A stretch of DNA of 64,000 bases from Gemmata sp. (lineage in GTDB: Bacteria; Planctomycetota; Planctomycetia; Gemmatales; Gemmataceae): assembly GCA_025055115.1 (NCBI GenBank), contig JANWYJ010000008.1:44230-108229 (forward strand), in the 5' to 3' direction. Below the pieces are notes generated by a model. That model had not been told where the DNA came from. It worked only from the letters and a program-made list of their open reading frames with translations, and did no database searches. How positions within the stretch are numbered: the first letter of the stretch is position 1; every line of letters begins with the position of its first letter. The translations under genes and the position numbers were made by a program. This document shows, piece after piece, positions 21,681 to 21,746 of the stretch.

Positions 21681-21730
21681 CGTCATCCCGCCATAAGAGT
21701 GACCAAGGAGAATCGTTGCGGTGTTCGCCA

Positions 21731-21746
21731 TGCAAGCGGCGTGCCG
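21731..21746 (-). promoter_or_regulatory. Sigma-54 type -24/-12 promoter candidate for groEL3-groES2-groEL2
   Basis: The minus strand reads CGGCACGccgcTTGCA (GGCACG-N4-TTGCA), about 50 nt upstream of ATG 21680. Geometry matches the motif at 7029-7044. Confidence 0.6.

Follow-up and report, generated by a model that had tools for sequence, protein, structure and literature searches.

A candidate sigma-54-dependent promoter with an upstream palindrome before the chaperonin operons of a Gemmata genome fragment, and its conservation in Planctomycetota

Two chaperonin operons and the motif in front of them

The window studied here (the whole 64-kb stretch of Gemmata sp. DNA that was analyzed, whose source is a hot-spring metagenome) contains only two chaperone operons, both on the minus strand and each with a sigma-54-type motif in front. 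Based on Pfam matches and the list of open reading frames (ORFs), the operon at locus 2 (15827-21680) comprises groEL3 (19998-21680), groES (19538-19849), groEL (17725-19410), dnaJ (16455-17651), and grpE (15827-16405), and a Zn-ribbon ORF at 15308-15811 may also be part of it. Locus 1 comprises groES (6685-6978) and groEL (4994-6631), with a terminator-like hairpin at 4936-4957. No heat-shock, sigma-54, or activator gene was found among the other 20 large ORFs scanned in the window. The gene order of locus 2, judged by locus tags, is that of R. baltica RB8966-RB8974, which were heat induced in a microarray study (PMC2754498).

As called, the groEL3 ORF is over-long (577 aa) and opens at an ATG at 21731 that lies inside TTGCATGG; the ATG at 7029 is placed likewise. 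A first-pass annotation of this DNA had put the real groEL3 start at 21680 and the ATG of the over-long ORF within the -12 element of a putative promoter, and both points are upheld. The start at 21680 (protein beginning MAAKQLTY...) is supported by a Cpn60 domain that begins at residue 23 and by homologues that align from residue 1. Two over-long ORF calls are corrected in this way, each with its false ATG inside a -12 element.

The predicted core promoter of locus 2, GGCACGCCGCTTGCA, occupies 21731-21745 on the minus strand (which reads CGGCACGCCGCTTGCATGG from 21747 to 21729), with the -24 GG at 21745-21744 and the -12 GC at 21733-21732. The sigma-54 consensus against which it was compared is YTGGCACGr-N3-TTGCW, in which an invariant GG and an invariant GC stand exactly ten bases apart. 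The same arrangement is present at 21731-21745, and CGGCACGCCGCTTGCAT fits all consensus positions but one, having C instead of T before the GG. The sister core promoter, GGCACGCGACTTGCA, lies at 7029-7043 on the minus strand, 5' of groES-groEL. At both sites, 52 nt separate the -12 C from the ATG (21732 to 21680 and 7030 to 6978), in agreement with the roughly 50 nt estimated earlier for groEL3. Under standard sigma-54 geometry, transcription of locus 2 is predicted to start near 21720 on the minus strand, 12 nt downstream of the -12 C. None of the RNA runs compared with the window contains this organism; they gave 4 to 6% shared words, reflecting conserved groEL sequence (about 5% for a related locus).

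The motif is rare. GGCACG-N4-TTGCA has two matches in the 64 kb (7029-7043 and 21731-21745), both on the minus strand, compared to a mean of 0.16 per dinucleotide-preserving shuffle, and one shuffle in 100 reaches two. The first-pass annotation had anticipated well under one chance match and had reported two copies, correctly oriented before the chaperonin operons; both statements stand. Perfect matches to the looser form GGCAC-N5-TTGC are confined to the same two sites, and its one-mismatch matches are background, as they number 24 versus 27.9 expected. A one-mismatch match at 25826 was set aside, since it belongs to this background class and adjoins an apparent ordinary sigma-70-type promoter. 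Within the window, the motif marks both chaperone operons (2/2) and nothing else, and all three groEL copies sit behind its two occurrences.

Other control elements were looked for as well. No CIRCE element (TTAGCACTC-N9-GAGTGCTAA) was found in the window with up to 3 mismatches allowed, and no terminator-like site was found on the minus strand inside the locus 2 gene cluster. Likewise, the minus strand of 15000-22000 and 4700-7400 yielded no sigma-70-like -35/-10 pair (TTGACA/TATAAT-like, 16-18 bp apart), although this is a weak test for the phylum because it uses the E. coli consensus and the planctomycete one is poorly known. These results are consistent with a single long operon at locus 2 under the predicted sigma-54 promoter.

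A conserved palindrome, spacer, and leader

Lining up upstream regions on the GG revealed a second element, a palindrome with the consensus CTGCCA-N3-TGGCAG. At locus 2, it is represented by CTGCCACTCTGTCAG, 15 bp long, at 21821-21835 on the minus strand, the first base of which lies 90 bp 5' of the -24 GG. At the sister site, CTGCCAAAGCGGCAG occupies 7154-7168 on the minus strand, 125 bp 5' of the -24 GG at 7043. The palindrome falls outside the region 21699-21746, with which the first-pass annotation dealt, and was missed there. With at most one mismatch, the consensus has three matches in the window versus 0.19 expected. The third of these (60490-60504) lies within an ORF, has no sigma-54 motif nearby, and is probably a chance match. 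There are weak signs of an extra left half-site, CTGCCA, at 21863-21868 on the minus strand, 33 bp upstream of the locus 2 palindrome. We also considered that the palindrome might be a terminator hairpin, as a terminator scan flags 7154-7168 on the plus strand, but this was rejected: no T-run comes after it on the upstream gene's strand, and the gene upstream of locus 2 is divergent.

A scan of a genome collection with GroEL3 as the query yielded 80 loci, comprising 10 from Gemmataceae (77-85% protein identity to GroEL3), 29 with other Planctomycetota labels, and 41 from other phyla. In 10/10 Gemmataceae loci, the motif is oriented with the gene, its GG lies 62-151 nt 5' of the start, and it occurs only once on either strand. 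Across loci L001-L034, the strict form GGCAC-N5-TTGC is found 62-223 nt 5' of the groEL homologue in 25 cases, versus only 3 occurrences elsewhere in the same loci (332 kb, both strands). Planctomycete loci without the strict form have one of the known variants GGCAT and GGTAC at -24 and an intact TTGC. The combination of GG(C/T)A(C/T)-N5-TTGC with the palindrome, ~81-125 bp from the promoter, is present in 36/39 Planctomycetota-labelled loci but in only 2/41 others. The latter two are labelled as an Actinomycetes metagenome-assembled genome and as an uncultured bacterium. A lack of enrichment upstream of chaperone genes in relatives had been named in the first-pass annotation as grounds for abandoning the sigma-54 reading; what the relatives reveal is clear enrichment.

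It can practically be dismissed that the motif is a chance occurrence without function. A shuffled window does reach two matches once in 100 trials, but position and orientation are conserved across dozens of genomes, a second conserved element accompanies the motif, and the association is specific to chaperone genes, so that the comparative data refute this explanation. Positions that the searches left free are also informative. Among 97 non-redundant sites, position -1 is T or C in 85/97, position +5 is G or A in 87/97, and position +14 is A or T in 82/97. As these positions still fit YTGGCACGr-N3-TTGCW, the motif follows the sigma-54 consensus beyond the bases used to find it. The C before the GG at 21731-21745 is shared with 34/97 related sites, and the G in that position at 7029-7043 is rare (8/97).

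The upstream regions of the ten Gemmataceae were aligned with MAFFT, an alignment that the first-pass annotation had proposed, and GGCAC and TTGC proved invariant. Mean column identity is 52%, and invariant columns are confined to these two elements, the palindrome (CTGCCA..TG.CA), an AA pair, and a TTGCG block. The latter two lie in the spacer between palindrome and promoter (21746-21820, minus strand). The AA pair is at 21785-21786 (columns A75 and A76), and the TTGCG block is at 21761-21765, 16-20 nt 5' of the GG (invariant columns T96 and G100), both on the minus strand. The promoter-proximal 50-60 nt of the spacer are AT-rich, with a GC content of ≤0.36 in 50-nt windows, compared to a mean of 0.60 for the window studied; at both sites, the 50 nt 5' of the -24 element rank among the most AT-rich 0.23% of all 50-nt windows. 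Across the 97 sites, an A-rich patch occurs at -43 to -41 from the GG, at the mid-point of the presumptive loop. No canonical IHF consensus was found in the spacer, which may be a bend or a site for a nucleoid protein.

The leader downstream of the promoter fared differently from these elements. The predicted 40-nt 5' leader of locus 2 (21681-21720, minus strand) holds TTCTCCTTGGTCAC at 21712-21699, and the leader of locus 1 holds TTCCCTTGGCAC at 7003-6992, in both cases 12-18 nt before the start codon. The first-pass annotation had taken these strings for a shared motif, TTC(C/T)CCTTGG(C/T)(A)C, possibly part of an RNA structure or a second operator. The strings are indeed present, but their similarity is at chance level, since 9-15% of shuffled leader pairs align equally well in local alignment, and the 10 orthologous leaders of Gemmataceae all lack the motif. 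The same two results speak against a function as a second operator. As for an RNA structure, folding of the two leaders gives z scores of +0.75 and +0.96, no better than shuffled sequences; neither leader has an Rfam match at E ≤ 1, and no leader column is conserved in the Gemmataceae alignment. RNA thermometers such as ROSE and fourU are likewise found in heat-shock 5' leaders, but here no stable or conserved hairpin over the ribosome-binding site or start codon was found. Post-initiation control through this motif, whether as a thermometer or as an operator, is therefore very improbable and largely refuted by computation. Two resemblances speak for it: the TTGGCAC of the motif is similar to the right half of the palindrome, and in another planctomycete clade a half-site, CTGCCA(A/G)A, follows the GG at exactly 41 nt.

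Genes behind the two elements and candidate activators

Metagenomes were scanned with the pattern CTGCCA-N3-TGGCAS, a gap of 70-100 nt, and GGCAY-N5-TTGC, which covers spacings of 85-115 bp. At least 120 loci matched. Among the matches listed, 112 loci have enough downstream sequence to classify, and in 74 of them a heat-shock gene comes first, or second after a small receiver-domain gene (GroEL, 27 loci; DnaK, 23; Hsp20, 14; GroES, 9; HtpX, 1). The remaining 38 listed loci comprise one that has only a receiver gene (L082) and 37 without a recurrent protein family. These 37, whose products include an ECF sigma factor, a Rieske protein, FliG, and a transposase, are most readily explained as matches that are unrelated or due to chance. 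Most of the GroEL-linked loci among the matches listed are nearest to planctomycete GroELs, and the gene order groEL-groES-(groEL)-dnaJ recurs in the listed loci. Because the palindrome-promoter module precedes groEL, groES, dnaK, hsp20, and htpX across Planctomycetota, we consider it most likely, judging from sequence, that it defines the core heat-shock regulon of the phylum.

The distance between the two elements is not uniform. Distances from the palindrome to the GG cluster at 81-82, 90-96, 100-104, 113-115, and 121-125 bp; the 125 bp of the sister site lie at the edge of their cluster. When a period of 10.5-11 bp is examined with a Rayleigh test, 40 genome sites have R = 0.65. Among the matches listed, R is 0.43-0.44 for 73 chaperone-linked metagenome sites and ~0.1 for 47 pattern matches without a chaperone link (the p-values of these tests ignore the kinship of the sequences and hence overstate significance). 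Such multimodal spacing in steps of about one helical turn is what looping by an activator predicts, and sites of sigma-54 activators are expected at ~70-150 bp upstream in a preferred helical phase. The palindrome, at 81-125 bp and with a period of 10.5-11 bp, has the position and spacing of such a site, and we propose that it is an enhancer. Among related loci, only about one in four has a second palindrome site, usually 40-42 bp from the main one.

Neither rpoN nor an activator gene was found in the 64-kb window or beside any chaperone locus examined. GAFTGA is the signature motif of sigma-54 activators, and a search of the window, of L001-L080, and of the 4.5 kb downstream of the L081-L200 promoters yielded no GAFTGA-type ORF. 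The sigma factor itself is known from the phylum: rpoN is present in R. baltica (PMC2754498), and Planctomycetia are treated as sigma-54 carriers in a recent survey (PMC12316311). Moreover, rpoN of Planctomyces limnophilus is described as complementing a Salmonella rpoN mutant (Leary 1998, as cited in PMC3035269), which indicates that the planctomycete sigma-54 recognizes canonical promoters.

The best lead to an activator comes from outside the phylum. L082 is verrucomicrobial, and the nearest named relative of its activator, among the matches listed, is from a Limisphaerales bacterium. In this locus, genes for a histidine kinase and an NtrC-type activator are directly followed by the palindrome, the sigma-54 motif, and a receiver-domain gene. 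Four more members of this activator family (67-70% identity) have the same layout, and in all five verrucomicrobial loci (5/5), two tandem palindromes, 20-23 bp apart, and the sigma-54 motif come directly after the stop codon of the activator gene. This makes a good circumstantial case for recognition of the palindrome by an NtrC-type response regulator, and we regard such regulators as the best candidate class for the predicted activator.

A planctomycete orthologue of the verrucomicrobial activator was not found in a search of a representative library. Matches are generic (41-52% identity), two matches at 71% are partial only, and similarity in the C-terminal helix-turn-helix does not discriminate between them. 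One of the match clusters is labelled Bacillota. The best full-length match, P0122, belongs to NC10/Methylomirabilales. In L039, L090, L097, L124, L130, and L176, the first gene of the groES operon is a stand-alone receiver or receiver-like gene, which hints at a phosphorelay with feedback from these genes. The receiver proteins of the verrucomicrobial and the planctomycete-type operons have only generic similarity (24-28%), and hence no orthology argument can be drawn from them.

The elements might be bound by something other than sigma-54 and its activator, for example, by a repressor acting on an unrecognized promoter in the manner of HrcA on CIRCE or HspR on HAIR. Palindromes are typical of repressor operators as well, and no activator could be assigned among the loci examined. 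However, the palindrome does not overlie the promoter but is found ~105-150 bp upstream of the predicted start, its helical-turn spacing points to looping by an activator, and in Verrucomicrobia such palindromes come directly after an activator gene; moreover, the positions left free by the searches match the extended sigma-54 consensus. We consider binding by another kind of protein to be quite improbable.

Proposed mechanism and relation to known systems

We conclude that the motif at 21731-21745 is probably (at a probability of about 0.8) the -24/-12 core of a sigma-54 (RpoN)-dependent promoter driving groEL3-groES-groEL-dnaJ-grpE. The sigma-54-type reading was already put forward in the first-pass annotation, and it is now borne out by conservation, orientation, and placement across relatives. 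Given the observed elements, their conservation, their helical-turn spacing, and their chaperone-specific association, we infer sigma-54 binding, activator binding, the start site, and heat as the signal. Sigma-54 RNA polymerase on GGCAC-N5-TTGC would form a closed complex that is unable to open alone. An activator (bacterial enhancer-binding protein [bEBP]) would bind the palindrome, 90 bp 5' of the -24 element and ~115 bp upstream of the predicted start. The AT-rich spacer would loop, bringing the activator into contact with the polymerase, and ATP would be used to open the promoter, such that transcription from near 21720 would produce the 40-nt leader. The same palindrome-plus-promoter unit stands before groES-groEL (7029-7168). 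Heat or protein-folding stress would switch the activator on, a signal suggested by which genes are present and by the findings in R. baltica.

It is odd that essential groEL genes should sit behind promoters that require an activator, and this implies either basal activity of the activator or an unrecognized second promoter. In the latter case, the sigma-54 site would be real, but most or basal transcription would come from a nearby promoter of the sigma-70 family. We consider such dual control unlikely, if the least improbable of the alternatives; the need to account for basal chaperonin expression from an activator-dependent promoter keeps it in play. Some basal expression is required of chaperonins that are essential, and each of the three groEL copies in the window is affected; a comparable hypothesis for Chlamydia is described in PMC8762339. 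The cTTGCG block conserved in Gemmataceae, 16-20 nt 5' of the GG, also counts in its favor. Against a second promoter, no plausible -10 element stands 16-18 nt from the TTGCG, and the minus strand search for sigma-70-like pairs was negative at both loci (with the weakness of the E. coli consensus noted above).

A wider reading of the sigma-54 promoter, to which we give even odds, is that the core heat-shock regulon of Planctomycetota is run via sigma-54 and one dedicated NtrC-type activator acting on CTGCCA-N3-TGGCAG, in place of sigma-32 or HrcA-CIRCE, with receiver genes providing feedback. Possibly, this would extend to other lineages of the superphylum. The same even odds, taken jointly, cover the supposition that the activator shares its DNA specificity with the verrucomicrobial kinase-activator-receiver module.

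The link between sigma-54 and chaperones in this group has been predicted before. A position-weight-matrix survey reported that, both in Planctomycetia and in Bacteroidota, predicted sigma-54 promoters are enriched upstream of the GroEL, GroES, GrpE, DnaJ, DnaK, and IbpA groups (Carrera-Reyna, Cruz-Flores and Merino, PLoS One 2025; PMC12316311), and the site described here is an instance of that predicted link. The survey's reference [80], cited for experimental sigma-54 dependence in Bacteroidota, is a Blattabacterium genome paper (PMC12316311). The survey differs from the present analysis in that it is purely computational and takes gene groups as its units, and the sections of it on which we draw mention neither an enhancer motif nor a spacing analysis or an activator for this cluster (PMC12316311). 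Our literature search turned up neither a description of the palindrome nor experiments on whether chaperone expression in Planctomycetes depends on sigma-54. The enhancer, the helical-turn spacing, and the motif-defined regulon are absent from the literature searched.

Bacterial heat-shock control is usually described in terms of sigma-32 or of the repressors HrcA and HspR. The targets here are the same as those of sigma-32 and HrcA/CIRCE (groESL, dnaK-dnaJ-grpE, hsp20, and htpX), and presumably so is the physiological purpose, whereas the proposed means is different: sigma-54 polymerase would be acted on from a distance by an activator that depends on ATP, in place of an alternative factor of the sigma-70 family or a repressor bound to an inverted repeat. 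In architecture, the locus resembles glnAp2 with NtrC and pspA with PspF and IHF: the GG and GC are ten bases apart, a palindromic site lies ~100 bp upstream with helical-phase dependence, the spacer is AT-rich and bendable, and the gene starts a few tens of nucleotides downstream. The NtrC site is TGCACCA-N3-TGGTGCA. CTGCCA-N3-TGGCAG is neither an NtrC nor a PspF site, there is no IHF consensus, and the targets differ in being core chaperones.

There are two earlier cases of sigma-54 acting on heat-shock genes. Chlamydia belongs to the same superphylum (Planctomycetes-Verrucomicrobia-Chlamydiae) and likewise has a sigma-54 promoter at a chaperone operon; however, that operon also has a sigma-66 promoter and HrcA/CIRCE control, whereas no CIRCE was found in our window. 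The chlamydial sigma-54 activator is not known to carry a DNA-binding domain. In Myxococcus xanthus, the heat-shock gene lonD reportedly has a sigma-54 promoter. This gene is described as being activated by the HsfB/HsfA phosphorelay (Ueki and Inouye 2002, as cited in PMC9109919). The likeness is that a heat-shock gene is activated directly by an NtrC-like response regulator, and the difference is that the M. xanthus system, in another phylum, serves a single protease gene along with secondary-metabolite and pilus genes, rather than the groESL/dnaK core.

The palindrome provides a practical handle, and the composite motif allows the regulon to be delimited in whichever planctomycete genome is of interest. 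If the wider reading is true, an entire phylum would use an enhancer-dependent, ATP-consuming sigma-54 switch for its essential chaperones, which would raise the questions of how basal expression is kept up and what signal the activator senses.

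Palindrome copies and the spacer between the proposed enhancer and the predicted promoter

Among the matches listed, most planctomycete loci carry a single copy of the palindrome CTGCCA-N3-TGGCAG, the proposed activator site upstream of the predicted sigma-54 promoter. A second copy lies 40 to 42 bp from the main one, a distance of about four helical turns, in two of the listed loci found with GroEL3 (L018 and L023) and in seven from metagenomes (L083, L107, L123, L124, L133, L145, and L148). A Planctomycetaceae/Pirellulales clade (L012, L015 to L017, L027, L033, and L040) has a half-site, CTGCCA(A/G)A, within the predicted leader, always 41 nt downstream of the GG of the -24 element.

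Between enhancer and promoter, the minus strand of the window holds two short blocks, TTGCG (21761-21765) and AA (21785-21786), which are invariant in ten Gemmataceae loci and weaker in other planctomycetes. The blocks do not match the consensus of an IHF site, and a role as a -35 element is not plausible.

The operon and its source organism

The window sequence was found in DNA runs of hot-spring metagenomes, one of which contained 98% of the sampled words, and the closest genomes are Gemmataceae MAGs, with GroEL identities of 77 to 85%. Thus, the DNA probably comes from an uncultured member of the Gemmataceae that lives in hot springs. The chaperone operon may end with an FmdB-type zinc-ribbon ORF (Zn_ribbon_8; 15308-15811, minus strand), which starts 15 nt past the end of grpE. 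GroEL3, the product of the first operon gene, has a histidine-rich C-terminal tail (19998-20050, minus strand), a feature that sets it apart from the two remaining GroEL copies of the window. Elsewhere, on the plus strand, an AT-rich intergenic stretch upstream of an ORF at 25930/25970 contains TTGACA, a 17-nt spacer, and TAAGCT (25883-25912); from its sequence, this looks like an ordinary sigma-70-type promoter.

Receiver genes and a verrucomicrobial activator module

In six loci (L039, L090, L097, L124, L130, and L176), the palindrome and sigma-54 promoter are followed first by a gene for a stand-alone receiver or receiver-like protein and then by groES or groEL; such a receiver gene could be a phosphorelay feedback element. 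In verrucomicrobial loci, the order is histidine kinase, NtrC-type activator, two tandem palindromes reading CTGCCA-N3-TGGCA(G/T), sigma-54 motif, and receiver gene (L082, 3792-3918; L201, 7367-7507; L202, 4379-4485, where a pilin-like [N_methyl] gene precedes the receiver; L203, 4368-4509; and L204, 4357-4494). This activator family comprises more than 100 protein clusters, with identities of 67 to 87%.

Sigma-54-type motifs at dnaK outside Planctomycetota

The dnaK genes of Puniceicoccaceae, a Spirochaetia MAG, and an unclassified bacterium are likewise immediately preceded by sigma-54-type motifs (L066, at 57; L067, at 2689; L068, region of about 2465-2609; and L074, region of about 2460-2604). 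In L068 and L074, a repeat other than the palindrome lies upstream, GTGTGACA-like and present in three copies. These motifs, together with the different repeat, suggest that control of chaperones by sigma-54 may reach beyond Planctomycetota, with other enhancers.
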